In this document: piece after piece, positions 24,829-40,505 of the stretch | Position numbering within the stretch: position 1 is the stretch's first letter | How the letters are laid out: every line of letters starts with the position of its first letter | Assembly: GCA_026991135.1 (NCBI GenBank) | Contig: JALXCD010000095.1 | Location: forward strand, 1-55,818 | From: Deltaproteobacteria bacterium | GTDB lineage: Bacteria > Desulfobacterota > Dissulfuribacteria > Dissulfuribacterales > QOAL01 | Direction: 5' to 3' | Length of the DNA stretch: 55,818 bases | Translations under genes and position numbers: made by a program | Notes under the pieces: model-generated | What the model saw: only the letters and a program-made list of their open reading frames with translations | What the model was told of the DNA's origin: nothing | The model's database searches: none

Positions 24829-25191
24829 ATGTTTGGCATCGGGCTTCCAGAATTAATAGTCATATTGGTTCTTGCACTTATAGTCCTTGGGCCTGAAAAA
24901 TTGCCTCAAGTGGCAAAACAGGTCGCTCGCTTTATAAATGACCTTAAAAGGGCAACAGATGAATTTAAAAAAGAGCTTGATCTAGATAAGCTGGACGATA
25001 TCAAAAATCCAGTTAAGCTTGAAAATCTTTTGGGTGAAGAGCTCAAAGACTTAAAGGATATCAAGAAAGACCTTTCCCCACCTGACTTTTTAAAGGATTC
25101 CACTTCATCCCAGGGAGAACTTTTAGGAGGCCTGGGCTCTGAATGGAAAGAGGCCAAGGGACCTTCCAAAAAAGAGGGAAATGGAAACTAG
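24829..25191 (+). CDS. tatB: Twin-arginine translocase TatB/TatA family subunit
   Basis: MFGIGLPEL, then a TM helix, then GPEKLP. Confidence 0.88.
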   Translation: MFGIGLPELIVILVLALIVLGPEKLPQVAKQVARFINDLKRATDEFKKELDLDKLDDIKNPVKLENLLGEELKDLKDIKKDLSPPDFLKDSTSSQGELLGGLGSEWKEAKGPSKKEGNGN

Positions 25192-25879
25192 GCCCTATAC
25201 CCTGAACGACCATTTAAGCGAACTTAGGCAGAGGATCATAAGGTGCGTAATATTCTTTGTTATTTCCTTTGCATTGAGCTACGCCCTTTCAGATTACCTG
25301 ATATCCCTTTTATTTTTCCCAGTAAAAGAAAGCCTTCCCTCAGGAAGCACTATGGTTTTTACGGCCCTGACAGAGGGTTTTATGGCCTATTTGAAGGTGG
25401 CCTTTTGGAGTGCAGTGGTCATCACCGCCCCCTTTTTTATCTATCAGGCATGGCGTTTTTTGCTCCCTGCCCTCTATGATAAAGAGATAAGGGCACTTAG
25501 AAAGATAATCTTTTTAAGCGGTCTCTTATTTATTTTTGGCGCTGTATTTGGCTACTGGATAATACTTCCAACAATCCTTTCAATAAGCCTAGGATATTCC
25601 TCAGAAACCCTTAAGGCACTTCCCCGTCTTCAAAACTACCTTGTCTTCACTCTTAAAAGTATATTTCTTTTTGGGATAATATTTGAGATTCCTTTTCTCA
25701 TGGCGGGGATTTCAAGGCTAGGCCTTATTTCAGAGGGCTATTTCAAAAAAAATAGAAAGTATGCCTATATCCTTATCTTTTTAACCTCTGCCGTTCTTGT
25801 CCCTTCTGACATATTTTCCCAGATCCTTCTATTTGTCCCCATGGTGGTAGTCTATGAGATAGGGAGTCTTCTTTCCTAG
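25181..25879 (+). CDS. tatC: Twin-arginine translocase TatC (copy 2)
   Basis: HLSELRQR, YQAWRFLLPALY, FEIP, RKYA, PSD; overlaps tatB. Confidence 0.9.
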   Translation: METRPYTLNDHLSELRQRIIRCVIFFVISFALSYALSDYLISLLFFPVKESLPSGSTMVFTALTEGFMAYLKVAFWSAVVITAPFFIYQAWRFLLPALYDKEIRALRKIIFLSGLLFIFGAVFGYWIILPTILSISLGYSSETLKALPRLQNYLVFTLKSIFLFGIIFEIPFLMAGISRLGLISEGYFKKNRKYAYILIFLTSAVLVPSDIFSQILLFVPMVVVYEIGSLLS

Positions 25880-26036
25880 GTCTTTCTGAGAAAACTTAAT
25901 TTTCCCAATAAAAAATAGGAAATTTTTGTCCTTTTATTTTGGGTCGGTCGTTCAAGGGTTTCTGATTATTACATTCAAAATTTGTCGTACCAATTCCTAT
26001 TTCAAAAGAAATAATTTTAGTGTTTTCTAAAAATCG

Positions 26037-26089
26037 TGTGAAAAAACTCATTTTCACAAAATAACTGAATTTAATGATAAATATCACAA
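26037..26089. promoter_or_regulatory. Inverted repeat and CRP/Rex-like site upstream of the respiratory operon
   Basis: TGTGAAAA-N6-TTTTCACA (26037-26058, perfect 8-bp arms) and AATGA-N6-TCACA (26073-26088). Confidence 0.4.
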
Positions 26090-26245
26090 AATACTTAGTG
26101 AATTCTTTATTTTATTGCATTTTTTGCATTTTTTTATTACATAACAAACTAATAAAAAATTAGAATAATAAATGTTTTCACATAAGCAACATGAATATGT
26201 TTTTGGATCTAAAATGGCCAAAATAGTCAAAAAGGAGATTTAGGC

Positions 26246-28330
26246 ATGACTAGTTCCACTTACAGCATTTGTGGCATGTGTGCAGTTCGCTGCCCCATCC
26301 GGGTCGAGGTAAGGGACGGCGAAGTAACCTGGATCGAGGGGAATTCAAATGATCCAGGTATGGGGACAAGCCTTTGTGCAAAGGGGATAGCGGGAAGGGC
26401 CCTTCTTTACGACCATGAAAGGCTCCAGTATCCCATGATAAGGGATGGTGAAAGGGGATCGGGTAAATGGAAGCAGGTCTCCTGGGATGAAGCCTATGAT
26501 TATATAACGTCTAAGTTAAAAGATATTATGGCCAAACATGGTGGCAAGGCAATAATGTTGAGTGACAGGGGTGGCCCCTTTGCCGATATGAGGAAGGCAT
26601 TTTTAAAGGCCCTAGGATCTCCAAACTACTGTAACCATGACTGCACTTGCGGCAGAAATACCCACCATGCTTCAAAATCTGTCTATGGACTGGGAAGGAC
26701 CGGCCTTGGCTATGATTTTAAAAATGCCAAACATATTGTCCTTTTTGGAAGGAATATGGTTGAGTCTTTTAAGGTCAAGGAAGTAAAGGCCTTCATGCAG
26801 GCAGTCAAAAATGGGGCCAAGGTCACATACATTGATCCAAGGGCTGCCCTTACCGCATCAAAATCCACAAGATACTGGCAGATAAGACCGGGAACGGACT
26901 ATGCCCTTCTTCTTTCCATGGTAAATGTCATCCTCAAAAGAGGCCTTTATGATAAGCAGTTCGTTAAAAAGTACGTAACAGGTCTTTCCGAGCTTAACAA
27001 GTTCATATCCGGTTACACGCCAAAATGGGCCGAGAAAGAAACTGGTATCCCAGCAGACGAAATCGTTCAGTTCTGTAAGGAAGTATCTGCCGATAAGCCC
27101 CATGTTATCTTTCATCCAGGCTGGCATCTTTCAAGATATACGGACTCCTTTTACGCAAGCAGGATGATTCATATCCTTAACTGCCTTATGGGTAATATAG
27201 AGGTCCCGGGGGGCCAATTTTTCCCAAAGACACCAAAGGATGCCGGCTATAAAGGGCTTAAAAGCCTTGGAGCAGATATTCCAAAGGTTGATGAAAAAAG
27301 GGCTGATGGCTGCGGATGGAAATACAAGAGATTTGACGGGGGGCCGGGCCTTTTGCAACTTATGTATGAAGTAATAGATACGGGTGAACCCTATCCGGTC
27401 AAGGCCTATTTCATTGTAAGGCATGATCCCCTTTTGGCCATGCCTGATCCAGAAGAGCAAAAGCGCATTTTGAACAAACTAGATCTTATTGTGGTGGTGG
27501 ATGTCAATTACAGCGAAAGCTTTGGCTTTGCCGATGTGGTTCTGCCTGAAAGCACCTATCTTGAACGGGACACCATAATGAGGACGGACAAGGGCTTAAA
27601 GCCAGGTTTCAGCCGCAGGAAAAAGGCAATAGAGCCAATTTATGACACAAAAGCAGGCTGGCAGATATGGACCGAACTGGCTCAGCGGCTTGGAAAGGGA
27701 GAGTATTTTCCCTATAAATCCATTGAGGATATCTGGAATTATCAGCTTCAAGATACCGGACTAAAAATTGAGGACTTTGAGGAAAAGGGCTTTGTTCAGC
27801 TTTCATCAAAACCCATCTGGTATGACCGGGATAAGTTAAAATTTCCTACAGAATCAGGGAAAATAGAATTTGTTTCCAAGAAGTTTGAAGAAGAAGGCAT
27901 CCCTTCCTTTAAGCCATACGAACCCCCAAAAAAGCCTTCTGAAGGCGAATTCAGGCTTCTTTTTGGAAGAACCGGGTACCAGACACACGGCCAGACCACC
28001 AACAATCCAATAATTTCTGAACTGATGGGCACAAACTGTCTCTGGATAAACAAAGAGGCAGCAGAAAGGCTCGGAATCAGTGACGGCCAGGAGGTCGAAT
28101 TGGTCAATAATGGAATATCCGGAAAGATTACGGCGAGACTTACCGATTTTATCCACCCAGAAGCAGTTTTCATGCTCCATGGGTATGGACGAACCATCCC
28201 ATTTCAAACAAGGGCATACAAGAAAGGCCTGGCCGATCAGGCCTTTATGAAGGGCCTTTTAAAGGTGTGGGACAAGGCAGGCGGCAGCATTGCCCTTTGT
28301 GAATCCTTTGTGAAAGTGATGCCTGCATAA
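26246..28330 (+). CDS. Cytoplasmic Mo/W-bisPGD oxidoreductase catalytic subunit (PsrA/PhsA-like)
   Basis: N-terminal CGMCAVRC...LCAKG Fe-S motif beginning at residue 9; no twin-arginine leader; NHDCTC ligand region; ADVVLPESTYLER; AAGGAG RBS. Confidence 0.88.
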   Translation: MTSSTYSICGMCAVRCPIRVEVRDGEVTWIEGNSNDPGMGTSLCAKGIAGRALLYDHERLQYPMIRDGERGSGKWKQVSWDEAYDYITSKLKDIMAKHGGKAIMLSDRGGPFADMRKAFLKALGSPNYCNHDCTCGRNTHHASKSVYGLGRTGLGYDFKNAKHIVLFGRNMVESFKVKEVKAFMQAVKNGAKVTYIDPRAALTASKSTRYWQIRPGTDYALLLSMVNVILKRGLYDKQFVKKYVTGLSELNKFISGYTPKWAEKETGIPADEIVQFCKEVSADKPHVIFHPGWHLSRYTDSFYASRMIHILNCLMGNIEVPGGQFFPKTPKDAGYKGLKSLGADIPKVDEKRADGCGWKYKRFDGGPGLLQLMYEVIDTGEPYPVKAYFIVRHDPLLAMPDPEEQKRILNKLDLIVVVDVNYSESFGFADVVLPESTYLERDTIMRTDKGLKPGFSRRKKAIEPIYDTKAGWQIWTELAQRLGKGEYFPYKSIEDIWNYQLQDTGLKIEDFEEKGFVQLSSKPIWYDRDKLKFPTESGKIEFVSKKFEEEGIPSFKPYEPPKKPSEGEFRLLFGRTGYQTHGQTTNNPIISELMGTNCLWINKEAAERLGISDGQEVELVNNGISGKITARLTDFIHPEAVFMLHGYGRTIPFQTRAYKKGLADQAFMKGLLKVWDKAGGSIALCESFVKVMPA

Positions 28331-28344
28331 GGGAGGAATGAACA

Positions 28345-28848
28345 ATGAGTAACTATTTTGTAGAACAAGATTTGACCCTTTGCATAGGCTGCCTGGCATG
28401 TGAAGCAGCCTGTAAGGATAAAAACTCCGTTCCTGAAGGGGCCTTTTACTGCAAAATGATCCCCGTTGGCCCCAGAATGATCGGGAACATACCGGTGGTC
28501 CAGCACGTCTATATGGCCTGTTTTCACTGCGAAAGGCCCTGGTGCGTGGATGCCTGCCCGACCGGGGCCATGCAAAGGCGCCCAGAAGACGGAATAGTCT
28601 TTGTTGAGGAAGACCTTTGTGTCGGCTGCAAGGCCTGCATGAAGGCATGTCCCTGGGGAGTTCCTCAGTGGAACGCGGACACAGGAAAGGTAGGCAAGTG
28701 CGACCTTTGCAAGGACCGCGTTGACCAAGGACTTTCTCCGGCCTGTGTCACCAAATGCACAACCGGGGCCCTCAAGTTCGTGACTCCCGGGGAAGCATCT
28801 CTAAAACGGCGCAAGGAGTTTGCAGAAGAAATGGTCAAGGGGGCATAG
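28345..28848 (+). CDS. 4x[4Fe-4S] electron-transfer subunit (PsrB/DmsB/NrfC-like)
   Basis: CIGCLACEAAC, CFHCERPWCVDAC, CVGCKACMKAC, CDLC...PACVTKC. Confidence 0.92.
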   Translation: MSNYFVEQDLTLCIGCLACEAACKDKNSVPEGAFYCKMIPVGPRMIGNIPVVQHVYMACFHCERPWCVDACPTGAMQRRPEDGIVFVEEDLCVGCKACMKACPWGVPQWNADTGKVGKCDLCKDRVDQGLSPACVTKCTTGALKFVTPGEASLKRRKEFAEEMVKGA

Positions 28849-28856
28849 GAAGCATC

Positions 28857-29234
28857 ATGAGGCCAGGAACCTACATCCCCACAGACTATTTACCCGTGCT
28901 AATAATGCTGATTTTTGCCACTGGCTTTGGGGCTGTGACCCTGTGGATCGGGCGATTCTTCAGGCTTTCAAGGCCCTATAGGGAAAAACTTGTTGCTTAT
29001 GAATCCGGCAACCCCCCAACCAAGGCCCCCAGGTTCAGGTTTTCAATCAAGTTCTATCTCATAGCCATATTGTTCGTGGTCTTTGATGTTGAGGCCATAT
29101 TTCTCTATCCGTGGGCCTTGGTCTATGACAGGATAGGACTTTTTGCCGTCATCGAGATGTTTCTTTTCATTTTCCTGTTGCTGGTTGGTTACCTTTATGC
29201 ATGGAGAAAGGAGGCCCTGGAGTGGGAAGACTAA
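28857..29234 (+). CDS. nuoA: Complex I subunit A
   Basis: YESG loop, FYLIAILFVVFDVEAIFLYPW, ALEW. ATG 28857 is 8 nt after the Fe-S subunit stop. Confidence 0.95.
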   Translation: MRPGTYIPTDYLPVLIMLIFATGFGAVTLWIGRFFRLSRPYREKLVAYESGNPPTKAPRFRFSIKFYLIAILFVVFDVEAIFLYPWALVYDRIGLFAVIEMFLFIFLLLVGYLYAWRKEALEWED

Positions 29235-29743
29235 CTACTTCTGACCTTGTAAAGGTCGGCCCCGGGCTCAAGGTAATTCCTGGGGCAAATACGCTGCTGG
29301 TCAGTCTTAACAGGATTGTAAACTGGTCAAGGGCAGGCTCTATCTGGCCTGTAACCTTTGGCCTTGCCTGATGTGCCATAGAGATGATGGCTGCTGGAAG
29401 CAGCCACCACGACCTAGACCGTTTCGGAATAATCTTCAGGGCCAGTCCGAGACAGGCAGATGCCATGATAGTTGCCGGAACGGTCACTCAGAAAATGGCC
29501 CCTGTTGTAAGGCGGGTCTATGATCAGATGCCTGAGCCAAGATATGTGATAGCAATGGGCAGTTGCGCATGTTCTGGCGGGGTGTTCAGGACCTATCATA
29601 CAGTTCAGGGGGCCGATGACTTTATCCCTGTGGATATCTATGTGCCGGGTTGCCCGCCAAGGCCAGAGGCGCTTCTTGAAGGGTTTATCCGGCTTCAGGA
29701 AAAGATAAACAAGGAGGAGTTGCGGTGGAGCCGTTGGAGATAG
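29222..29743 (+). CDS. nuoB: Complex I subunit B with in-frame TGA (codon 50), probable selenocysteine
   Basis: AAGGAGG (29208-29214) then GTG 29222. Frame reads ...[19 protein letters not shown](29369-29371)-CAIEMM..., canonical GLACCAIE. GSCA and VPGCPPRPE are intact downstream. Confidence 0.88.
29388..29406 (+). promoter_or_regulatory. Putative bacterial SECIS hairpin in nuoB
   Basis: TGGCTGCT-GGA-AGCAGCCA: perfect 8-bp stem starting after a 16-nt spacer from the UGA, with a G-first apical loop 25 nt from the UGA. Confidence 0.75.
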
Positions 29744-30315
29744 CAGAGCTTTTAAAACAAAGGTTTCCAGGTCAGGTTATTGAAATAAAAGAATTTCGAG
29801 ATCAGGTGGGAGTCCTGCTGAAAAAGGGTCAGATACTGGATATTTGCAGATGGCTGCATGATGATTCAAGGCTCCAGTTCAATCACCTGGCTGATCTTTG
29901 TGGCGTGGATTACCTGGGGAAAAGGGACTGCCGATTTGAGGTAGTCTATAACCTCTATTCCATCCCCTTGAGACATTGGATTCGCCTTAGGGCCCAGGTT
30001 CCAGAAGAAGACTGCAAGATTGATTCGGTCACCTCCATCTGGATGGGTGCAAACTGGCATGAAAGGGAGTGCTACGACCTTTTTGGTATAGAGTTTATTG
30101 GCCATCCAGACCTTAAAAGGATATTGCTGCCCGAAGGCTGGGAAGGCCATCCCCTTAGAAAGGACTATCCGCTGGATGGAGGTGGAAAGAACTGGTCAGG
30201 GTACGAAGAAATTCGTAACAAGACCAAAGACCTTAGACAGTATGATTTTTACGGGAATTATCCTGACCCAACCAAGGTAAACGAGTTGAAAGATGTTGAA
30301 GGAAAAGATGGATAG
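29725..30315 (+). CDS. nuoC: Complex I subunit C
   Basis: [38 protein letters not shown]. Confidence 0.95.
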
Positions 30316-31507
30316 TAACGAGAGTGCTGCCAGGGCCTTTGAGCCCTACGAAATCCAGATGGGTCCACAGCACCCTGCAACCCACGGAGTGCTCAAGCTG
30401 GACCTCGAACTTGATGGAGAGACCGTGATCGGTTGCAAGCCCACGGTTGGTTTTTTGCACAGGGGAGTGGAAAAGCTTTCTGAAAACCTGACCTATGCCC
30501 AGACACTGCCCCTGACCGACAGGCTCGACTACATCGCTTCCATGGCCAACAATGTAGTTTACAGCAATGCCGTTGAAACGCTTCTCGGGATAGAAGTGCC
30601 TGAGCGGGCAAAATTCATTCGCACCATGGTCATGGAAATGGCAAGGATCACAGGACATCTCCTGTGGCTTGCAACACACGCACTGGACATCGGCGCCATG
30701 ACTGTTTTCCTCTATTGCTTCAGGGAAAGGGAACAGCTTCTGGACCTTTTTGAAGAGGTATGCGGGGCACGTCTTACCACGTCATATACCTGCATCGGAG
30801 GGGTGCGCCAGGATGTTACGGGCCACTTTCTGGAAACCCTCCATAAATTTACGGAAGAGTTTCCATCAAGGGTCAGGGAGTATGAAACCCTGATTGACCA
30901 GAATCGAATATGGCTTAAAAGGACCCAGGGGGTTGGGATTGTATCTGCGGAGGATGCTGTAAGCCTTGGACTTACAGGTCCGTCTTTAAGGGCATCTGGA
31001 GTTGATTATGACGTAAGAAAACACCTTCCCTTTGATGCCTATTCGGAAGTGGAATTTGAGGTCCCAATAGGGAAACGGGGCGATGTTTATGACAGATACC
31101 GGTGCAGGATGGAGGAACTGCTCCAGTCAAACGGCATAATCAGGCAGTGCATTGAGAAACTTCCTCCTGGACCCATAAAGGCCGACGACGCACCAGATCT
31201 GGTTATGCCCCTTAGCAAAAAATGTGTTTTGGCAGACGCAACCTTGACAAGCGGAGTCATAAAATTGGTCGAAGACCGTAAACACTATATGGAAGGGGAT
31301 GTCTATGTCTCCGGGGAATGTCCAAAGGGAGAACTGGGCTTTTATTTTGTGAGTGACGGGAAGGGAAGGCCCTACAGGATGCATATCAGATCGCCCTCCT
31401 ATATCCATATCGGGGCCTTGCCTTTTCTTTGTAAGGGTCAGATGGTGGCAGACGTTATTGCCATCATAGGAAGCCTAGACGTGGTTCTCGGAGAATGTGA
31501 CAGGTAA
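30308..31507 (+). CDS. nuoD: Complex I subunit D (start 30293 or 30308)
   Basis: [24 protein letters not shown]-terminal [11 protein letters not shown]; no NiFe CxxC motifs. Confidence 0.96.
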
Positions 31508-31520
31508 TGGTGAGGGATAG

Positions 31521-32489
31521 ATGGAAATTTTGTGGATAATTCTGAAAATTGTAATTGTCTTTGCCGTATTGATGGTCCATGTGATGTATGCGACCTATTT
31601 TGAACGAAAGGTCATAGGTCACATGCAGGTCAGGATGGGACCGATGCGCGTGGGGCCCCACGGTATCCTTCAGCCCATTGCTGATGGTCTTAAGCTCTTT
31701 TTCAAGGAGGATGTCGTCCCTGAACAGGTGGACAAAAGGGTCTTTTATATAGCCCCGCTGATTTGCCTGATATCGGCCCTCAGTGCAGTTGCAGTTGTCC
31801 CTTTCTTTAAGGGTTTTGCAATAGCCAACATCAATATTGGCCTTTTGTATATCTTTGCCATGAGTTCTCTTGCCGCCTACGGAGTAGTCCTTGCAGGCTG
31901 GTCATCCAATTCGAAGTATCCGTTCCTTGGGGGGCTCAGGGCCTCTGCACAGGTAATCAGCTACGAGATAGCCATGGGGCTAAGTCTTGTGGGAGTAATG
32001 ATGATGGCAGGCTCCCTGAACCTAACAGATATAGTCATGGCACAGTCCAGGAGCCCCTTCAAAATCTATCTAATCCCGCAATTCATCGGCTTTTTTGTCT
32101 TTTTGATCGCCATGTTTGCAGAGACCAACAGGACACCCTTTGACCTTCCAGAGGCAGAGCCTGAGCTTGTGGCTGGCTACTGCACCGAATATAGCGGAAT
32201 GAGATTTGCGCTATTTTTCATGGCCGAATACATCGGCATGATAGTGATGTCCTGTGTGGGGGTGGTCTGTTTTCTTGGAGGCTGGAATGGCCCATTTGAT
32301 GTCCCAGGCATTCCCTTTTTCTGGTTTATACTCAAGGTCTATCTTTTCATCTTTCTCTATTACTGGGTAAGGGCCACTCTTCCCAGATACAGATACGATC
32401 AACTCATGGCCCTTGGCTGGAAGGTTCTTATTCCACTGGCCCTTTTCAACATTTTGCTTACAGGCACCATGAAATCCATTTTGGGGTAA
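31521..32489 (+). CDS. nuoH: Complex I subunit H
   Basis: ERKVIG, QPIADGLKL, AQVISYE, RTPFDLPEAE, RYRYDQL. Confidence 0.97.
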   Translation: MEILWIILKIVIVFAVLMVHVMYATYFERKVIGHMQVRMGPMRVGPHGILQPIADGLKLFFKEDVVPEQVDKRVFYIAPLICLISALSAVAVVPFFKGFAIANINIGLLYIFAMSSLAAYGVVLAGWSSNSKYPFLGGLRASAQVISYEIAMGLSLVGVMMMAGSLNLTDIVMAQSRSPFKIYLIPQFIGFFVFLIAMFAETNRTPFDLPEAEPELVAGYCTEYSGMRFALFFMAEYIGMIVMSCVGVVCFLGGWNGPFDVPGIPFFWFILKVYLFIFLYYWVRATLPRYRYDQLMALGWKVLIPLALFNILLTGTMKSILG

Positions 32490-32501
32490 AAGGCAGGGAT
32501 T

Positions 32502-33152
32502 ATGGAAATACGTTACAAGACAAAAAAAGGATTACTGGAAAACATTCTTTTGCTCGAGATATTAAAGGGTCTGGGTCTTACCCTAAAAAGGCTTTTTTCA
32601 AGGTCTGTTACTATCCAGTATCCAAATGAGCGAAAGCCGCTTTTCCCGGGGTTTAGGGGAAAACATGCCCTCATAAGGGACCCTGTAACAGGCGATGCAA
32701 AGTGTGTTGCCTGCATGAGATGTGCATCAGTATGTCCAGCAAGGTGTATAACCATACGATTTGAAAGGGATGAAGAGACAAATGCAAGAAGGCTTACCAA
32801 GTACGAGATAGATTCATTGCGGTGCATTTTTTGCGGGTATTGTGAAGAGGTCTGCCCAGTAAATGCCCTGGTCCTGACAGAAGAATATGAATACTCGGGC
32901 TACACCAGGACTCCGTTTCTTTTTGACAAAGAAGGGCTTCTCAGGAACTGGGACGAATTTTTGGAGAAAAACCGTCTGGATGAAAAAAGATATCTCAATC
33001 CCTTTATGCGCCCTAGAGGGATTTCCGTTAAAGAGCTTCCTTCAGGAAAGAGGATTGATGTTCCAAAAGAGTGGACTCTTGAAGGCCAGGTGATCTGGAG
33101 AAACGGAAAGGCTGAAAGCGTTTCTGCCAGGGAGATATCCAGGGAGGAATAA
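32502..33152 (+). CDS. nuoI: Complex I subunit I with long C-terminal extension
   Basis: TIQYP, FRG, CVACMRCASVCP and CIFCGYCEEVCP. Confidence 0.95.
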   Translation: MEIRYKTKKGLLENILLLEILKGLGLTLKRLFSRSVTIQYPNERKPLFPGFRGKHALIRDPVTGDAKCVACMRCASVCPARCITIRFERDEETNARRLTKYEIDSLRCIFCGYCEEVCPVNALVLTEEYEYSGYTRTPFLFDKEGLLRNWDEFLEKNRLDEKRYLNPFMRPRGISVKELPSGKRIDVPKEWTLEGQVIWRNGKAESVSAREISREE

Positions 33153-33674
33153 ATGGTCTATCTTTTATTTTTTTACTTTTCCATTGTGGTTATAGGCCTT
33201 GCCTATAAGGTAATTTCGGCAAAAAACCCGGTTCATGGCGTGCTTACCATGCTTGCCCTCTTTTTCCACATGGCAGGCTTCTATCTTCTTTTAAATGCCG
33301 AGTTTTTGGCCGCCGTCCAGGTAATTGTCTATTGCGGTGCCATACTGGTTCTCTATCTCTTCGTGCTCTTTCTGGTTGACATAAAGAGCGAGGTTAAAAC
33401 AGGTCCTTTTATAAAAAATGGCGCAAAACTCGCCATACTTAGCTCCATTCTGTTGCTTTTGACCTTTCTAAGGGGTGTCAAGAACTTCAGCCTTGGCCCC
33501 CACGGCCATTTTACAATTGAAAGGGTGCAGGAAATTACCCATACCAAGGCCATTGGGCAGGAGGTCTTCACCACCTACATACTGCCCTTTGAGATTGCGG
33601 GCCTGATACTTCTTGTGGCTGTTATTGGGGGTCTTGCCCTGGCCAAAAGGGAAGCTGAAGGAAAGGAGGGCTGA
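33153..33674 (+). CDS. nuoJ: Complex I subunit J
   Basis: NPVHG, AEFLAAVQVIVYCGAI, YILPFE. Confidence 0.94.
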   Translation: MVYLLFFYFSIVVIGLAYKVISAKNPVHGVLTMLALFFHMAGFYLLLNAEFLAAVQVIVYCGAILVLYLFVLFLVDIKSEVKTGPFIKNGAKLAILSSILLLLTFLRGVKNFSLGPHGHFTIERVQEITHTKAIGQEVFTTYILPFEIAGLILLVAVIGGLALAKREAEGKEG

Positions 33675-33677
33675 AAA

Positions 33678-33980
33678 ATGGTGCATCTAAGCTGGTACAT
33701 GACGGTTTCTGCCATCCTTTTTTCCATGGGCGTCTTTGGTTTTTTGACAAGGCGAAACCTCATAATGATGCTTCTTTGCATTGAGCTCATGCTAAATGCC
33801 ATAAATCTCAATCTCGTGGCCATTAGCCACTACATGGAAGATATGAGGGGACAGGTCCTTGTATTTTTCATTATTGCCGTCGCAGCAGCAGAGGCAGCTA
33901 TAGGCCTTGGTCTTATAGTTACCCTTTTCCGAAACGTAAAAAGCGTTTACACAGAAGACCTCACTACCCTGAAAGGATAG
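33678..33980 (+). CDS. nuoK: Complex I subunit K
   Basis: RRNL, IELMLNA, AAAEAAIGL. Confidence 0.96.
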   Translation: MVHLSWYMTVSAILFSMGVFGFLTRRNLIMMLLCIELMLNAINLNLVAISHYMEDMRGQVLVFFIIAVAAAEAAIGLGLIVTLFRNVKSVYTEDLTTLKG

Positions 33981-33984
33981 AGCC

Positions 33985-35904
33985 ATGAGTATCCCTGTTT
34001 TCATTCTCTTGATACCTTTCCTTCCCCTGGTATCCTTCGTATTTACAATCCTTTTTGGTAAAAGGTTCGGAGAAAAGGCTCACTGGCCTCCAATAATAGC
34101 GGTTTTTGCCTCCCTTTTTTGTGCACTTATTGCCTTTAACAAGGTGCTTCACGGGTTTCATCTAAACGAGGACCTTTACGTATGGTTTTCGTCTGGGCAC
34201 TTCAAGGCATCTGTAGGGTTTTTAGTGGACGAGCTAACCGCTGTTATGCTCATAGTTGTTACAAGTGTCAGTGCCCTGGTTCATGTGTATTCTGTGGGCT
34301 ACATGCACGGAGATACAGGTTACTACAGGTTTTTTTCCTATCTGAGCCTTTTCACCTTCTCCATGCTCATGCTGGTACTTGGCAACAATTTTTTACAACT
34401 GTATTTCGGCTGGGAGGCCGTGGGCCTTTCTTCATACCTTTTGATTGGTTTCTGGTTTGAGAAAAAGTCCGCCTCTGATGCGGGCAAGAAAGCATTTATC
34501 GTTAACAGGTTCGGGGATTTTGGATTTGGCCTTGGGATTTTCGTGGTTTTCCTGACCTTTGGATCCGTCCATTATGCCGATGTCTTTTCCCAGGTGAGTC
34601 AGGCAGTTGGAAAGGGCTTTGATTTCTTAGGGTTTCGTGTTGACGTTATAACCCTGATGGCAGTACTTCTTTTTTGCGGTGCTGTTGGAAAATCTGCCCA
34701 GATCCCGCTTCACGTCTGGCTTCCTGATGCAATGGAGGGCCCCACTCCTGTCAGTGCCCTTATACACGCGGCAACCATGGTCACTGCCGGTGTCTTTCTG
34801 GTTGCAAGGTGTCACCCAATTTACGATTTGTCACCCTTTGCCCTAAATTTGATAACCATAATAGGGGCTCTTACATGCCTTTTTGCCGCAACAATAGCCC
34901 TTGTCCAGGTGGATATAAAAAGGGTTATTGCATACTCCACAATCAGCCAGCTTGCCTACATGTTCATCGGTTGCGGCGTAAAGGCATATGGAGCAGGGAT
35001 TTTTCACCTCTTTACCCATGCCTATTTTAAGGCCCTCCTATTTTTGGGGGCTGGAAGCGTGATACATGCCATGAGTGACGAGCAGGATATTAGAAAGATG
35101 GGAGGGCTTAAAAGCTATCTTCCCATTACCTATTTCACCTTCCTCCTGGCATCCCTGTCAATCTCTGGGATTCCTGGCTTTGCCGGCTTTTTCAGCAAGG
35201 ATGAAATCCTTGCCATGGCCTTTGCTTCACCGGTTGGCGCAGGAAAAGTTGCCTGGTTTATAGGAACTGTTGTGGCAGGAATGACCGCCTTTTATTCATT
35301 CAGGCTCTTTTTTCTCACCTTTCATGGTGAATTCAGGGGGACAGATGAGCAAAGGCGCAAGCTTCATGAATCTCCCTTTTCAATGGCAATACCCCTGTCC
35401 CTCCTGGCCATTGGCTCTGTGGTTGCCGGCTGGGTAGGAGTGCCAGAGGTCCTTGGAGGTGAAAATGGCTGGGCCGAGTTTATCGGAAGGTGCCTTGGTC
35501 ATCCACATGCCCACCTTTCTCATTCAGTTGAGTGGACCTTGATGATCATATCGGTTGCCGCTGGCGTAACCGGGATTTACCTGGCCTATCTCATGTACCT
35601 GAAGAGGCCAGAACTGCCTGTTTCCCTTTATGAAAAATTTCCGCGTGTCTATGAATGGCTATTTAACAAATACTATGTGGATGAATTTTATGGCTGGCTG
35701 ATAGTCCAGCCCACCATAAGATGCGGCCGCTATGTCTTGAGAGGCTTTACAGACGGAAAGATAATCGAGGGCATTGTAAACGGTATCCCAAGGTTGATTG
35801 GAAAGTGCAGCAGCGGTCTTTCCGGGTTTCAGACCGGAAGGGTCCAGCAATATGCGGGAGTTATGGCCATTGGCGCATTTATTTTGCTTCTTTTTTTCAT
35901 GTAA
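33985..35904 (+). CDS. nuoL: Complex I antiporter-like subunit L
   Basis: WEAVG, GKSAQIPLHVWLPDAMEGPTPVSALIHAATMV, GFFSKD; full length (639 aa). Confidence 0.97.
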   Translation: MSIPVFILLIPFLPLVSFVFTILFGKRFGEKAHWPPIIAVFASLFCALIAFNKVLHGFHLNEDLYVWFSSGHFKASVGFLVDELTAVMLIVVTSVSALVHVYSVGYMHGDTGYYRFFSYLSLFTFSMLMLVLGNNFLQLYFGWEAVGLSSYLLIGFWFEKKSASDAGKKAFIVNRFGDFGFGLGIFVVFLTFGSVHYADVFSQVSQAVGKGFDFLGFRVDVITLMAVLLFCGAVGKSAQIPLHVWLPDAMEGPTPVSALIHAATMVTAGVFLVARCHPIYDLSPFALNLITIIGALTCLFAATIALVQVDIKRVIAYSTISQLAYMFIGCGVKAYGAGIFHLFTHAYFKALLFLGAGSVIHAMSDEQDIRKMGGLKSYLPITYFTFLLASLSISGIPGFAGFFSKDEILAMAFASPVGAGKVAWFIGTVVAGMTAFYSFRLFFLTFHGEFRGTDEQRRKLHESPFSMAIPLSLLAIGSVVAGWVGVPEVLGGENGWAEFIGRCLGHPHAHLSHSVEWTLMIISVAAGVTGIYLAYLMYLKRPELPVSLYEKFPRVYEWLFNKYYVDEFYGWLIVQPTIRCGRYVLRGFTDGKIIEGIVNGIPRLIGKCSSGLSGFQTGRVQQYAGVMAIGAFILLLFFM

Positions 35905-35928
35905 TTAAGAGGGGAGGAATTGTTTCAA

Positions 35929-37464
35929 ATGGAATATGGATTTCCAATACTTAGTTCCCTGATTTTTCTGCCAATTATTGGCGCAATAGGCATCCTGTTC
36001 ATACCCAGGAAGGAAGAGCTGGAGGTAAAAAGGTTTGCCCTACTGGTTGCAGTGCTGGAATTTTTCCTTTCCCTTCCACTCTGGTTTGGATTTGACAAGG
36101 CAACCCACTTGATGCAGTTCGTGGAAAAGAGGGAATGGATTTCCTCTTGGAATGTCCAATATTACCTGGGAATCGATGGAATAAGCGTTCTTTTTATTCT
36201 TCTTTCCACCCTTATCACCATCTTGTGCATCCTGGTTTCCTGGACTGCAATCACAGATAAAATAAAGGAGTTTTTTGCAGCCCTCCTCTTCTTGGAAGGG
36301 GTGATGATAGGGGTTTTTTGCGCCCTTGACTTTTTCCTCTTTTACATATTCTGGGAGGCCATGCTGATCCCCATGTACCTGATTATTGGCGTATGGGGCG
36401 GCCCTGGAAGGCTTTACGCCACAATAAAATTCTTTCTCTATACACTTATTGGAAGTCTTTTGATGCTGGTAGGGATAATAATGCTCTATCTCAAGGGCGG
36501 GCACACCTTTGATATTTTGAAACTGGCATCAAACAATTATGACTTTAAATTCCAGATGATTCTTTTCTGGACCTTTTTTGCCGCCTTTGCAGTCAAGGTT
36601 CCCATGTGGCCGGTCCACACCTGGCTTCCGGATGCACACACAGAGGCTCCGGCAGCAGGCTCGGTCATTCTTGCCGGCATTTTGATCAAGATGGGGGCAT
36701 ACGGATTCTTGCGGTTTTCCATGCCAATTTGCCCGCAGGCAACCCAGGCAATGATGGTCCCAATGCTTGTCCTTTCAGTCATTGCCATAATCTACGGGGC
36801 TGTAATCTGCCTGGGCCAGGATGATATGAAAAGGCTCATTGCCTATAGCTCTGTAAGCCACATGGGCTTTGTCACCCTAGGCATCTTTGCCCTAAATTAC
36901 CAGGGCCTTGAAGGCGCAATTCTCCAGATGATAAATCACGGGGTGGTTACGGGGGCATTATTTCTTTCCGTGGGTATCATATATGAACAAACCCATACCA
37001 GGGAGATCTCAGATTACGGCGGACTTGCAACCGTAACCCCGATATTTGCCGGCTTTTTCCTGGTCTTTACCCTGGCATCAATAGGCTTTCCAAGCCTCAA
37101 CGGGTTTGTTGGTGAATTTCTGATACTCCTGGGCGGTTTTGCGGCAAAGACATGGGCAGGTTTTTTGGGAGCCACAGGAATAATAATTGGAGCAGGATAC
37201 ATGTTATGGCTCTATCAAAGGGTATTTTTCATGAAGGTGAATGAAAAGGTGGCAGGTGTGCGTGATATAAATTTACGGGAGATCATTACCCTTCTTCCAA
37301 TGCTCATCTTGATCTTCTGGATAGGTATATTTCCAAATAACTTTTTAAGCTACATGCATGTGTCTGTTACCCACCTGCTGGATCAGGTAAATCAAAATTC
37401 CGGCCTTGTGCAGACAGGCCCCCAGGCATTTTTGGAAACTGCTATAAGGCTCATAGGAGGTTAG
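35929..37464 (+). CDS. nuoM: Complex I antiporter-like subunit M
   Basis: FYIFWE, KVPMWPVHTWLPDAHTEAP, AYSSVSHMG, FVGEF. ATG 35929 follows GGAGG. Confidence 0.97.
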   Translation: MEYGFPILSSLIFLPIIGAIGILFIPRKEELEVKRFALLVAVLEFFLSLPLWFGFDKATHLMQFVEKREWISSWNVQYYLGIDGISVLFILLSTLITILCILVSWTAITDKIKEFFAALLFLEGVMIGVFCALDFFLFYIFWEAMLIPMYLIIGVWGGPGRLYATIKFFLYTLIGSLLMLVGIIMLYLKGGHTFDILKLASNNYDFKFQMILFWTFFAAFAVKVPMWPVHTWLPDAHTEAPAAGSVILAGILIKMGAYGFLRFSMPICPQATQAMMVPMLVLSVIAIIYGAVICLGQDDMKRLIAYSSVSHMGFVTLGIFALNYQGLEGAILQMINHGVVTGALFLSVGIIYEQTHTREISDYGGLATVTPIFAGFFLVFTLASIGFPSLNGFVGEFLILLGGFAAKTWAGFLGATGIIIGAGYMLWLYQRVFFMKVNEKVAGVRDINLREIITLLPMLILIFWIGIFPNNFLSYMHVSVTHLLDQVNQNSGLVQTGPQAFLETAIRLIGG

Positions 37465-37471
37465 AACCAAG

Positions 37472-38908
37472 ATGTCAAATACCTTCCTTTTCCCGGTTGT
37501 TTCACCCTTAGGCCCTGAGATTTTCCTGGCAGCCGTTGCCTGCTGCCTGGTAATATTTGACTCCCTTTTCAAGGAGCAAAGAAACATTTTTCCGGTAATT
37601 TCCATTACAGGCGCAACTGTTACCACCTTAATGGTTGCAAGCTCCAAGGGGCTTGGTTTTTCCGGAATGTATAACGTGGATGGCTTCAGTGTCTTTTTTA
37701 AGATTATATGTCTTCTTGCCCTGATCTTTACCGTCCTGATGTCCCACAATCATTTGAAGGTTCTCGGTGTTAAAAGGGAAGGAGAATATTACAGCCTCAT
37801 GCTTTTTGCCTGTATAGGCATGATGGTAATGGCCTCTGCCCTTGATCTTATTGTTCTCTATCTTGGCCTGGAACTTATGGCCCTTAGCGTATATTGCCTG
37901 GTTGGAATTCAGAAAAAGGACAAAAGGGCAAGCGAGGCTGCCATAAAATATTTTTTACTTGGGGCCTTTGCATCATGCCTTTTTTTATTCGGGCTTTCCT
38001 ATATCTATGGTGCTACAGGCACAACATCGTTACCGGTGGTAACCAGTTTTTTGACAGGTGAAGGCATTAAATCAAATCCGGCCTTTTTGCTAGGTCTTGG
38101 CCTTGTACTGATTGCCTTTTCCTTTAAGGTGGCTGCCGCGCCATTTCACATGTGGACCCCGGATGCATACGAGGGCGCAATGACGCCGGTAACCGGCTTC
38201 ATGTCAGTTGCTCCAAAGGCAGCCGGGTTTGCAGCCCTTTCAAGGCTTCTGTTCGAGGCCTTTCCCGCACTTCATGGCAACTGGGTATTGCCTTTTGAGA
38301 TAATGATCTTTTTGACCATGGCCATTGGGAATATTACTGCCATTAGCCAGGTTTCCATAAAAAGGATGCTTGCCTATTCGTCCATTGCACATGCAGGCTA
38401 TGCCCTTTTGGGCCTTCTGCCCGGGACTGCCCAGGGTGTTTCCGCCACCATGAACTACCTTTTCATTTATCTTTTCATGAATATGGGCGCCTTTGCGGTA
38501 ATAGTTCTTTTGCAGCAGAAGGGACTGGCAGGTGAAAGGCTTGAAGATTACAAGGGGCTTGCAAAAAGCCATCCTGTTGCAGCAGGGCTCATGCTTGTCT
38601 TCATGTTTTCCCTAACTGGCATTCCGCCAACAGCAGGCTTTATTGGCAAGTTCAACTTGTTCGTGGCCGCCTTAAATGCCGGTTATACAGGCATGGTGAT
38701 CTGGGCAGTGATCTTTAGCGCAATCTCGGCATATTTTTACCTGAGGGTTGTGATGCTCATGTACATGCACGAGCCTCAAAAAGAGGTGGCCATTGTACGC
38801 TCAGGTGCGCTCTCGGCTGTTCTTGTCATGACCCTTGCAGGCGTTTTGATCATTGGGATTTATCCCAATGATCTTTTGCACCTTGCAGGCATGATCTTTG
38901 GCAAGTAA
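37472..38908 (+). CDS. nuoN: Complex I antiporter-like subunit N
   Basis: EAAIKYF, FKVAAAPFHMWTPDAYEGA, KRMLAYSSIAHAG, GIPPTAGF. Confidence 0.97.
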   Translation: MSNTFLFPVVSPLGPEIFLAAVACCLVIFDSLFKEQRNIFPVISITGATVTTLMVASSKGLGFSGMYNVDGFSVFFKIICLLALIFTVLMSHNHLKVLGVKREGEYYSLMLFACIGMMVMASALDLIVLYLGLELMALSVYCLVGIQKKDKRASEAAIKYFLLGAFASCLFLFGLSYIYGATGTTSLPVVTSFLTGEGIKSNPAFLLGLGLVLIAFSFKVAAAPFHMWTPDAYEGAMTPVTGFMSVAPKAAGFAALSRLLFEAFPALHGNWVLPFEIMIFLTMAIGNITAISQVSIKRMLAYSSIAHAGYALLGLLPGTAQGVSATMNYLFIYLFMNMGAFAVIVLLQQKGLAGERLEDYKGLAKSHPVAAGLMLVFMFSLTGIPPTAGFIGKFNLFVAALNAGYTGMVIWAVIFSAISAYFYLRVVMLMYMHEPQKEVAIVRSGALSAVLVMTLAGVLIIGIYPNDLLHLAGMIFGK

Positions 38909-38918
38909 AAAAGCGTTT

Positions 38919-40505
38919 TTATCCTTCTAGAACCCTTCTACATGCCCTGGCAAAGTCTTCAGGGAAGTGACCGGTTATCCACCTTCCCTGCTGCTCGCTG
39001 AAGGCCCCAGGGGATTGGGGATGTTTTGGCAAAAAGGAGTACATGAGCCTTTGGTCAGAGCTTGAAAAGAACCTTTTTGAAATTTCAAAGGAGGTTATCA
39101 TCCTTGCTCCAAGTCCTGCCAGTGCCCTTACTGCCTTTAATATGGCCAGATCAATGCTCCTTCTTGTATCAAGGTCTGCTTCAAGTATGTTTCCTACAGG
39201 TTTAAGGCACAAAAGCTGTAATTCCCCTTGAGAACGCTGGGCCTTTGGCGCAAAAAGTATCACATTTTCATCCCTAAAGACTGTCAATTCACCGCTGATG
39301 TCACTTCTTTCATCAATCCTTTTGTTGGATTCTATTGCCCTTATAAGACAGGTAAAAAAGGAACGGCCAAATTCTTTTTTGTATTGGGTGGTAAACGCCT
39401 CTACACTATCTCCTATCGCATAGGTGGGGAACTCATTTCTTGATGAAATCTCAAGGGATGTATCCGGTATGAGGGCAAATTGCTGATGTATCTGCTGGTG
39501 GGATGCATTGAGTCTAAATCCCGAGGGGCTGAAATCATAGCCAAAGTTCCAGCCCCAAAGGGTTGCACTGAATCTAAGATCCTTTTTTGCTTTTCCTCCC
39601 TTTATTTCTTCCAGAATCTTTAATCTAATCTCTTCAAGCTCCTTTTCCGAAAAAAGCCCCCTTTTTTTCAGATTATTCCCAAGCTCCACAAGAAGGGTAG
39701 TGAATATCCTCTGGTAATAAAGGTGCCTAAGCCCCCTTATATCCTTTTCATCAAGCGTATCTACAGAATATCTTACAGCATCCTGGGCCATATTGGCAGC
39801 AAAATGCCCCCAGGGTATATAGCTATTGGCCCTTAGATATTCCCAGATGTGACCCCTTTTCTTGTCAATGAATTCTCCTACAATTGGGCTTAATCCTTGG
39901 ATGCCAGGGTTTAAAAGGAGAAGTCTTTTAAGATAATCGGGCAGAAAGGGATTGTTGCCCAGTGTTTCATAAAGGTCGTGGTCAAGTATCCTTGGCCTGA
40001 CCCTTCCATTTTCATCACTTTCATATTTTAGACCTGTGATTTTCCCTTTTCTGTCCCGCATAAATTCAGCACAGAGGGGCAAAAGTTTTTTCAGTATCCT
40101 CGGGTCCTTACAGGTTTGTGCAATTGCTAGGATAACTGGGCGTGGGATGTCTTTTATATCAAGTTTAAAAAACTCATCCCAATTTTCAAAATTGCACTCC
40201 CCTTTTGGTTCAAAACTTATTGGAATATCCCTTTTTGAATTTTCCCTGGCAATATCTCCAAGAATAAATGTGGCCCCCAAGAATGGAAAGGCATTTGGTA
40301 TTTCAAAGATGGGCTGTGCCTTGTCAACATGGATATCTCCCTTTGGGAAATTGGCAAGGTTTTGAACCATACTTCCATCTTCCAACTGTCCAAGGTCTAA
40401 AACTGTTTCGTTCAGCCTGTGGTTTAGAACGTGATAGCTTGGAAGGTGGCATGAGACCAAAAAGTATCCGTCAGGGTGTACGCAGGTTTTGACCAGTCGG
40501 TTCAA
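38919..40505 (-). CDS. Hypothetical protein, possibly GalT/HIT-superfamily nucleotidyl transferase/hydrolase
   Basis: 528-aa ORF; TTG start with AAGGAGG RBS; WNFG...NASHQQIHQQ resembles GalT-type GAS..HxHxQ; FAPKAQR..GE resembles the second GalT half. Confidence 0.55.
   Translation of the reverse strand: MNRLVKTCVHPDGYFLVSCHLPSYHVLNHRLNETVLDLGQLEDGSMVQNLANFPKGDIHVDKAQPIFEIPNAFPFLGATFILGDIARENSKRDIPISFEPKGECNFENWDEFFKLDIKDIPRPVILAIAQTCKDPRILKKLLPLCAEFMRDRKGKITGLKYESDENGRVRPRILDHDLYETLGNNPFLPDYLKRLLLLNPGIQGLSPIVGEFIDKKRGHIWEYLRANSYIPWGHFAANMAQDAVRYSVDTLDEKDIRGLRHLYYQRIFTTLLVELGNNLKKRGLFSEKELEEIRLKILEEIKGGKAKKDLRFSATLWGWNFGYDFSPSGFRLNASHQQIHQQFALIPDTSLEISSRNEFPTYAIGDSVEAFTTQYKKEFGRSFFTCLIRAIESNKRIDERSDISGELTVFRDENVILFAPKAQRSQGELQLLCLKPVGNILEADLDTRRSIDLAILKAVRALAGLGARMITSFEISKRFFSSSDQRLMYSFLPKHPQSPGAFSEQQGRWITGHFPEDFARACRRVLEG

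Follow-up and report, generated by a model that had tools for sequence, protein, structure and literature searches.

The stretch of DNA analysed here (hereafter the window) is the 55,818-nucleotide (nt) contig JALXCD010000095.1 of the Deltaproteobacteria bacterium assembly GCA_026991135.1, that is contig C95 of a 2.32-Mb genome in 164 contigs that is 97% complete. Positions 26246-38908 hold 13 co-directional genes, identified by open reading frames (ORFs) and Pfam or NCBIfam profile matches as a molybdenum- or tungsten-bis(pyranopterin guanine dinucleotide) (Mo/W-bisPGD) catalytic subunit, hereafter MoA, an iron-sulfur subunit, hereafter FeSB, and the complex I genes nuoABCDHIJKLMN. We explore whether MoA and FeSB could take the place of the NADH module NuoEFG, and how an in-frame TGA in nuoB is to be read. 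The features are as follows.

26246..28330, + strand: MoA, PsrA/PhsA-like Mo/W-bisPGD catalytic subunit, cytoplasmic, 694 amino acids (aa) (PF04879, PF00384, PF01568)
28345..28848, + strand: FeSB, PsrB/DmsB/HycB-like subunit for electron transfer with four [4Fe-4S] clusters, 167 aa, a proposed link to NuoI (Fer4_11)
28857..29234, + strand: nuoA (PF00507, NCBIfam NuoA); the start at 28857 agrees with the model alignment and with relatives
29201..29743, + strand: nuoB, read through an in-frame TGA; start ATG 29201 or a nearby in-frame GTG
29369..29371, + strand: TGA codon in nuoB, read as selenocysteine U57, at the first Cys position of GLA-C-C-AIEMM
29388..29406, + strand: hairpin, candidate bacterial selenocysteine insertion sequence (SECIS), 8 bp stem, GGA loop, beginning 17 nt past the TGA
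29725..30315, + strand: nuoC (PF00329, TIGR01961)
30293..31507, + strand: nuoD, with HPATHG at residues 27-32 and RLDY at 77-80 (PF00346; NF004739, 517 bits)
31521..32489, + strand: nuoH (PF00146)
32502..33152, + strand: nuoI, 216 aa, lengthened at the C-terminus by a conserved tail (residues ~141-205) seen only in FeSB-linked Nuo operons (NuoI models)
33153..33674, + strand: nuoJ (PF00499)
33678..33980, + strand: nuoK (PF00420)
33985..35904, + strand: nuoL (PF00361 and PF00662)
35920..37464, + strand: nuoM (PF00361)
37472..38908, + strand: nuoN (PF00361)

The genes are tightly packed, with 14 nt between MoA and FeSB, 8 nt between FeSB and nuoA, and -34 to +15 nt within the nuo genes. All 13 were found on one strand where the original prediction, made from the sequence of this DNA alone, had placed them; its gene content thus stands, with the correction that nuoB is not an uninterrupted ORF, the in-frame TGA at 29369-29371 having been overlooked. 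A promoter and terminator scan of 25700-39400 gave no terminator between FeSB and nuoA; its matches are at chance level (21 versus 17.4 and 21 versus 19.0 in shuffles), so that the scan is uninformative on transcription units.

MoA obtained its best NCBIfam score with the PhsA model (NF012032; 573.4 bits, aligned from model position 41, under the 694-bit equivalog cut-off), the runner-up being the formate dehydrogenase (Fdh) alpha subunit with 277 bits. Among solved structures the best relative is Thermus thermophilus PsrA (2VPW_A, 405 bits, query residues 3-690 on chain residues 38-740), followed by acetylene hydratase (199 bits); FdhH is matched with 170 bits. The cysteine motif of cluster FS0 lies at the N-terminus (Cys 9, 12 and 16), PF04879 spans residues 4-55, and the Cys of the stretch CT-CGRN aligns with the 2VPW_A chain Cys counted as residue 173, which we take to be the Mo ligand of T. 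thermophilus PsrA. Classed by these hidden Markov model (HMM) and PDB scores, rather than by a phylogeny with outside PsrA, PhsA, SreA, ArrA and Fdh references, the assignment of MoA to the Psr/Phs clade of Mo/W-bisPGD (complex iron-sulfur molybdoenzyme, CISM) subunits is supported, nearer to PsrA/PhsA than to Fdh, Arr, Dms, Nar or Nap. The best solved relative of FeSB is PsrB (2VPW_B, 100 bits), with HycB (7Z0S_B) at 62 bits, and its 17 Cys are all invariant across 33 orthologues.

Canonical PsrABC and PhsABC enzymes are exported by the twin-arginine translocation (Tat) system, face the periplasm and sit on a quinol-binding PsrC/NrfD anchor. PsrABC (2VPW) and Salmonella PhsABC are the best relatives of MoA and FeSB, which keep the FS0 motif, the Cys counted 173 and the four clusters of the B subunit, but the operon encodes neither a Tat leader nor an NrfD protein, and 11 Nuo genes follow instead. 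A Tat leader on MoA is not possible, because 26246 is the first start past the upstream stop, leaving no upstream extension of the ORF, and the first Cys is residue 9. No NrfD/PsrC anchor gene was found in the operon or the window, and the five NrfD matches of the genome are all on other contigs. A PsrA/PhsA-like catalytic subunit with its first Cys motif at residue 9, the missing leader and the missing anchor had all been read correctly in the original prediction. Genes for a TatA/B-like protein and TatC lie at 24829-25879, directly upstream of the Tat-less MoA, with 366 nt of intergenic DNA between them.

All 11 core Nuo subunits were matched by Pfam or NCBIfam models. NuoD scores 517 bits on NF004739 against a cut-off of 360, which marks it as complex-I-type and not as a [NiFe] hydrogenase large subunit, and it carries HPATHG and RLDY, presumably quinone-site motifs; NuoL, NuoM and NuoN each match PF00361, so that both the quinone-site motifs and the three antiporter subunits are present as had been predicted. 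Whether nuoEFG lie elsewhere in the genome had been left as a question: NuoF has no match here, nor does any of five family relatives have one (0/5), NuoG gave nothing over cut-off in the genome, and a NuoE-like query (from locus L075, see below) had no tblastn match in it, no NuoE family search having been made. That NuoEFG are missing from the lineage is thus supported.

Three further loci of the genome hold related genes. A second nuoA-N operon, on contig C67 (23651-34088), has a NuoB with two consecutive cysteines (CC-type) and no partner gene upstream; a second Tat-less MoA and FeSB pair stands alone on contig C120 (4013-6576; 55% and 53% identity); and at the end of contig C145 (586-3632) a Tat-bearing PsrA-like gene (MKRRNFLK...) is found with PsrB. 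AprA is present, and neither DsrA nor DsrB was found over cut-offs in this 97% complete genome. A description of the organism as a Dsr-free thiosulfate disproportionator was nevertheless dropped, since DsrA occurs in 5/5 family relatives and its absence therefore probably reflects a gap in the assembly; the lineage is thus a sulfur metaboliser of the Dsr/Apr type. DNA sequencing runs with the locus amount to ten rows from four studies, from hydrothermal-vent metagenomes where labelled, and one of them may be the source.

Relatives of MoA were collected by a scan of one genome per species, which yielded 162 stretches, of which the best 80 were kept. An FeSB-like gene directly follows MoA in 73/80 loci and nuo genes directly follow the pair in 43/80. 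In 21/80 another redox partner follows: a GltD/SudA-like flavoprotein (16/80), in many cases accompanied by a CBS and a 2Fe-2S/4Fe-4S protein, or a set of NuoE-like, NuoF-like and NuoG-N-terminal-like genes (5/80). The remaining loci either end too early to be classified (12/80) or have downstream room with nothing recognised in it (4/80). The linkage of MoA-FeSB with nuo is far beyond chance, and its conservation in relatives, which the original prediction had made its test, extends over two phyla and differing gene orders.

In the tree of MoA, built from 80 rows (the window and 79 loci, with L083 left out for its short match), a starred clade of 40 rows comprises Desulfobulbia, Desulfocapsa including D. 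sulfexigens, and one Thermodesulfobacteriaceae metagenome-assembled genome (MAG); 38 of its rows are linked to nuo and the other two are contig ends. GltD-like or NuoEF-like partners characterize a Desulfobacterales clade, and all three partner types are found in a Nitrospirota clade. Two Nitrospirota loci show how far the arrangement can vary: L068 has the order MoA-FeSB-nuoB-D-I-A-C-H-J-K-L, and in L074 the set is confined to MoA-FeSB-nuoD-nuoI, with unrelated genes after it. A linkage that survives rearrangement and narrows to two subunits of the peripheral arm speaks for the module being physically associated with this arm, and not just for operon inheritance. Loci L044-L063, L064, L075, L079 and L081, from Desulfobacterales and some Nitrospirota, combine a MoA-FeSB pair (54-59% identity) with soluble partners and not with nuo, which suggests, as far as gene content goes, that the enzyme has soluble forms linked to NAD(P)H. 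Such swapping of partners shows that MoA-FeSB behaves as a cytoplasmic catalytic cassette, regularly wired to an electron-transfer partner encoded downstream. In L151 and L152 (genomes G335 and G383) MoA (58-60% identity) is followed by two tandem FeSB-like matches, nuoA and a nuoB with TGA at the codon discussed below; G383 is a single-contig genome and may thus derive from a cultured strain.

The C-terminal tail of NuoI (~141-205) is conserved in 33 orthologues, Nitrospirota included, and was found by tblastn in 35 FeSB-linked loci and the window, and not in the second Nuo of the genome (C67). The complex of NuoI and FeSB was predicted with each protein supplied as a 33-row alignment, in three runs and with three controls. 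It scored 0.56 in 3/3 runs, with a best control of 0.00, contacts that agree at 100% between runs and a partner predicted local distance difference test (pLDDT) of at least 85. In a benchmark the mark was reached by 58/80 solved complexes and 2/110 mismatched pairs; at scores of 0.60 or lower it was reached by only seven of those 80 complexes and by both passing mismatches, so that the structure prediction of the B subunit with NuoI, one of the partners named for this check in the original prediction, lends weak support only. Synteny, the co-occurrence of the NuoI tail with FeSB and this pass together suggest that FeSB may dock on NuoI.

A further group of small genomes (1.5-1.8 Mb; L153, L098, L100, L102-L105, L108, L110, L112 and L113) has an FeSB-like gene directly before nuoA and no adjacent Mo gene, with 32-41% identity. 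In L153 this gene encodes 138 aa (5980-6396, - strand), and upstream of it lie a 233-aa ORF without Pfam match and then TIM and PGK genes. An FeSB-like gene before nuoA in genomes of this type fits a role of FeSB as connector subunit.

The NCBIfam NuoB model covers the portion of nuoB that is 3' of the TGA, and the full-length product aligns with PSST/Nqo6 chains, placing the TGA on the first Cys of GLACCA(V/I)EMM; with HycG NuoB scores 91 bits. The tandem Cys of this motif are presumably ligands of cluster N2. Past the TGA the frame stays open and the remaining Cys ligands are kept, and if the TGA is read as selenocysteine (Sec) the ligand set of N2 would be complete. Among the NuoB genes of MoA-linked loci (n=40) this codon is TGA in 15 and TGC or TGT in 25. 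A survey of 401 genomes of the phylum gave matches in 316; among the 150 of 489 matches listed, 20 have one TGA, and 19/20 have it at the N2-motif codon, the other, in genome G228, having CC there. In the combined set 33/82 genes are Sec-type and 49/82 have Cys at the same codon, three duplicate places having been removed and some rows being possibly the same genome reached by two routes. The tree of these 82 rows requires at least four changes between Sec and Cys, three of them forced by starred branches.

A hairpin is found ~17-20 nt past the UGA in every Sec-type nuoB, with four different stem sequences and energies from -9.3 down to -16.2 kcal/mol for the first set and from -7.2 down to -14.4 for the others. 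In loci L138-L150, a second Sec-type group (GLA-TGA-CALEMM) in nuo operons of another kind without a close MoA, compensatory changes occur in 2/7 pairs of the stem, and 89% of cells pair versus 14-51% in slid controls. Three of the 25 Cys forms (L035, L040 and L085) have hairpins of -16 to -20 kcal/mol, at least as strong as the Sec-type ones, 12-48 nt past the Cys codon; these may be relics of a recent change from Sec to Cys, or a by-product of coding. The Mann-Whitney p value computed for the hairpins does not count as a true probability, since the sequences share ancestry. An Rfam scan of 29200-29600 returned no SECIS family, its only two matches being at chance level. The genome encodes the machinery for Sec, namely tRNA-Sec, SelB (378 bits) and SelA (624 bits), the latter two both above cut-off. 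One locus of the second Sec-type group, L145 (1060-8659, - strand), has an Fdh-like Mo gene, split by a stop 12 nt before the next ORF, and an Fe-S protein before nuoA, and a protein with NADH_4Fe-4S, Fer4_20 and Pyr_redox_2 domains after nuoD.

On this evidence nuoB is very probably a true selenoprotein gene. A nonsense mutation or an assembly error, which would leave the Nuo defunct, is a highly improbable account of the TGA. It can draw on the single base that separates TGA from TGC or TGT, on the lack of an Rfam SECIS match and on the eight NuoB homologues fetched from the database (seven of them within the first 11 of 120 listed, and P0014), all of which are CC forms; yet TGA recurs at the same codon in 33/82 genes, from independent assemblies and in four or more branches of the NuoB tree, the frame and its ligands have been kept, every Sec-type gene has its hairpin, with compensatory changes in one group, and tRNA-Sec, SelA and SelB are at hand. 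That the fetched homologues are all CC forms suggests truncation of the Sec forms by gene callers.

No report of a Sec-containing NuoB was found in the literature covered, which excludes subscription journals and supplements; a look-up by term in two selenoproteome reviews (PMC13188914, PMC9312934) did not find NuoB or PF01058, their sole NADH:quinone entry being NqrE. The Fe-S selenoproteins known from these reviews (HdrA, FrhD/VhuD and GlpC-like) are similar to NuoB in having Sec for Cys in a redox metalloprotein, Cys homologues and a downstream hairpin; they differ from it in that the position in NuoB is a ligand of cluster N2 of complex I. Whether NuoB forms an uncatalogued selenoprotein family in several Desulfobacterota and Nitrospirota lineages, with Sec as the first of the tandem N2 cysteines, is in our judgement an evenly balanced matter, and in such a family selenium may tune N2, from which electrons pass to quinone, for reversible electron transfer near equilibrium between menaquinone and sulfur couples of very low potential.

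The idea that PsrAB is coupled with Nuo is not new, and the original prediction overstated its novelty. In Thermodesulfovibrio sp. N1 one of two NuoEFG-less clusters was described in 2016 as linked to A and B subunits of the Psr/Psh family, and the same coupling was proposed, as a genomic remark without comparative or experimental test (PMC5165239). There PsrAB (THER_0567/0568) lies beside a NuoEFG-less nuo cluster (THER_0569-0582), as in the window, but in another phylum and with another gene order; the part of that paper available does not mention Sec in NuoB, and a Thermodesulfovibrio MAG (L078) is among our 80 MoA loci. In other studies Phs and Nuo gene sets are listed side by side without comment (PMC9751629, PMC7117923). 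The 11-subunit complex I has been regarded as a platform on which different donors dock, a concept of Moparthi and Hagerhall (summarised in PMC11238625); compared with other such enzymes, for which the partner is mostly not known or taken to be ferredoxin, a specific partner is here encoded in the operon. What is new in the present analysis is the breadth of the linkage and its robustness to rearrangement, the alternative partners, the FeSB-specific NuoI tail and the selenocysteine.

Two further systems invite comparison. Formate hydrogenlyase (FHL) of Escherichia coli (7Z0S/7Z0T) likewise leads from a cytoplasmic Mo-bisPGD enzyme through a multi-cluster connector to a complex-I-related core, HycB linking FdhF to the core as FeSB would link MoA to Nuo, an arrangement known here from genes. 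The FHL core is however a proton-reducing [NiFe] hydrogenase without quinone, whereas the operon has the NuoD motifs of complex I, three antiporter-like subunits and a catalytic subunit of the Psr/Phs and not the Fdh type. Dissulfuribacter thermophilus has a Tat-less PhsAB-like pair without PhsC (DITHS69_2027/2028), resembling the orphan pair on C120, which was proposed in 2026 to act in disproportionation by cytoplasmic cleavage of thiosulfate, the authors raising the question of membrane association (PMC13490349). Unlike MoA-FeSB of the window this pair has no nuo genes beside it, and its abundance runs opposite to that of Nuo.

Taken together, we think it somewhat better than an even chance that the PsrAB-like module and Nuo form a physical complex that acts on a sulfur compound. 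This would be one membrane complex, in which a quinone-reactive, proton-pumping Nuo core of 11 subunits lacks NuoEFG and carries the MoA-FeSB module in place of the NADH module. FeSB would dock on NuoI, aided by the C-terminal tail specific to this type of Nuo, and would connect the Mo site with clusters N6a/b, with N2, in which the first tandem Cys ligand would in this lineage be selenocysteine, and with the menaquinone site. The complex might then operate as a reversible sulfur-compound:menaquinone oxidoreductase coupled to the proton motive force (pmf), with thiosulfate or polysulfide as the likeliest substrates; in the favoured direction pmf would drive electrons from menaquinol onto a low-potential sulfur acceptor.

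Complex I translocates 4 H+ per 2 e-. The potentials quoted in PMC13490349 are -402 mV for thiosulfate and -74 mV for menaquinone, and the gap of ~330 mV for 2 e- would be roughly equal to 4 H+ at a pmf of 150-180 mV, so that a reversible Nuo could push menaquinol electrons onto thiosulfate or polysulfide, or pump protons in reverse. Salmonella PhsABC reduces thiosulfate using menaquinol (PMC13490349). Several published proteome and transcript observations count in favour of the complex. The Nuo subunits GF1_30510/30520 of Desulfolithobacter dissulfuricans, encoded next after PhsA-1/PhsB-1 (GF1_30490/30500), were detected only under thiosulfate disproportionation (PMC9751629); in Desulfurivibrio dismutans Nuo is upregulated in sulfur disproportionation and the authors invoke 'some unknown electron-donating oxidoreductase' (PMC12142623); and the transcript list in the genome figure of 'Ca. 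Desulfobulbus rimicarensis' holds both PhsAB and NuoABCDHIJKLM (PMC7117923).

A number of points weigh against a complex of this kind. The orphan pair on C120 and the sister-clade pairs with soluble NuoEF-like or GltD-like partners indicate that the module can work without Nuo, so that the complex would not be obligate; in D. thermophilus the PhsAB-like genes lie far from nuo (2265-2274) and the two protein sets change oppositely (PMC13490349); the pass of the NuoI-FeSB prediction may reflect the similar solved HycB-FHL complex (7Z0S); running Nuo in reverse costs pmf, which is hard to fit to the low yield of disproportionation unless concentrations in vivo raise the acceptor potential; MoA lies under the PhsA equivalog cut-off (573 versus 694 bits), which makes the substrate uncertain; and no RNA sequencing run with the locus is listed. 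Some of these facts bear on a rather unlikely alternative, in which the two modules are co-regulated and co-transcribed for one pathway and physically separate, MoA-FeSB being a soluble thiosulfate or polysulfide reductase on ferredoxin or another carrier and Nuo taking electrons from reduced ferredoxin, a role already suggested for other complexes that lack NuoEFG. Besides the orphan pair, the soluble partners and the weak prediction, this account can point to the second Nuo on C67, which has no partner gene, and to the unlinked D. thermophilus enzyme, modelled as soluble by its authors (PMC13490349). It has difficulty with the minimal Nitrospirota locus, which ties the module to two peripheral-arm subunits and not to the pathway generally, with a linkage that holds in 38/38 resolvable loci of one clade and survives changes of gene order, with the NuoI tail that co-occurs with FeSB, and with the FeSB-like genes that directly precede nuoA without MoA in some genomes.

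A single complex could also run the opposite way, oxidising reduced sulfur (sulfide to polysulfide, or sulfide and sulfite to thiosulfate) and feeding menaquinone while Nuo pumps protons, as an energy-conserving dehydrogenase; we hold this possible, if doubtful. Complex I normally works from donor to quinone, for which the quoted potentials give ~330 mV of driving force, and the characterised Psr/Phs enzymes act, on the contrary, as reductases. The 11-subunit Nuo is concluded in a study of D. hafniense to make mainly menaquinol from cytoplasmic donors (PMC11238625) and PMC5165239 allows both 'oxidation or reduction', yet the Nuo subunits of D. dissulfuricans appear when thiosulfate must be cleaved (PMC9751629); sequence decides neither way. 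Less probable still, and to our mind improbable, is a Mo enzyme with a non-sulfur substrate, for instance an organic molecule or an oxyanion of arsenic or selenium, whose likeness to Psr/Phs would reflect ancestry only. The score under the PhsA cut-off and the place of acetylene hydratase as second-best solved relative (199 bits) leave some room for it, and an Arr-clade enzyme that seemingly serves nitrate respiration (PMC12142623) illustrates that clade names can mislead. PsrA and PhsA are nevertheless far ahead of the next relatives (405 versus 199 bits in PDB, 573 versus 277 bits in NCBIfam), those carriers that bear a name come from lineages of the sulfur cycle (Desulfocapsa, Desulfobulbus, Thermodesulfovibrio and Dissulfurispiraceae among them), and a PhsAB-like homologue rises under thiosulfate disproportionation (PMC13490349).

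Some features of the surroundings may be added. The G+C fraction is 0.49-0.50 in the operon core (28-32 kb) and 0.38-0.45 in the flanks. Only the genus of the window (4 genomes) has a pair of NuoB matches, with the Sec type among them at E ~1e-107, and other genera of the family and order have a single NuoB match at ~1e-57 to 1e-60 (own genome, G313, G361 and eight genomes of the order compared). The operon may have been acquired horizontally. Convergent with nuoN lies a 528-aa ORF (38919-40505, - strand), for which Pfam gave nothing at E <= 0.001.

The finding stands and makes biological sense; its central hypothesis, a proposed coupling of a PsrAB-like module with the complex I core, has been anticipated in print. 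It bears on the question, raised in PMC12142623 and PMC13490349, of which enzyme gives electrons to the NuoEFG-less complex I of anaerobes or takes them from it, and the comparative data point to one answer that is testable in cultured strains, namely a PsrAB-like module that would dock on NuoI. If true, it would explain how electrons at menaquinone potential reach cytoplasmic thiosulfate or polysulfide, or how those couples drive proton pumping, and it would fill a missing energetic link in sulfur disproportionation. NuoG itself is a degenerate Mo-bisPGD protein, and the proposed architecture resembles the presumed ancestry of complex I. A selenium ligand on N2, if true, would provide a naturally occurring variant of complex I's key cluster, accessible to electron paramagnetic resonance (EPR) and structure determination, and this subunit would then be found split by gene callers in many genomes.

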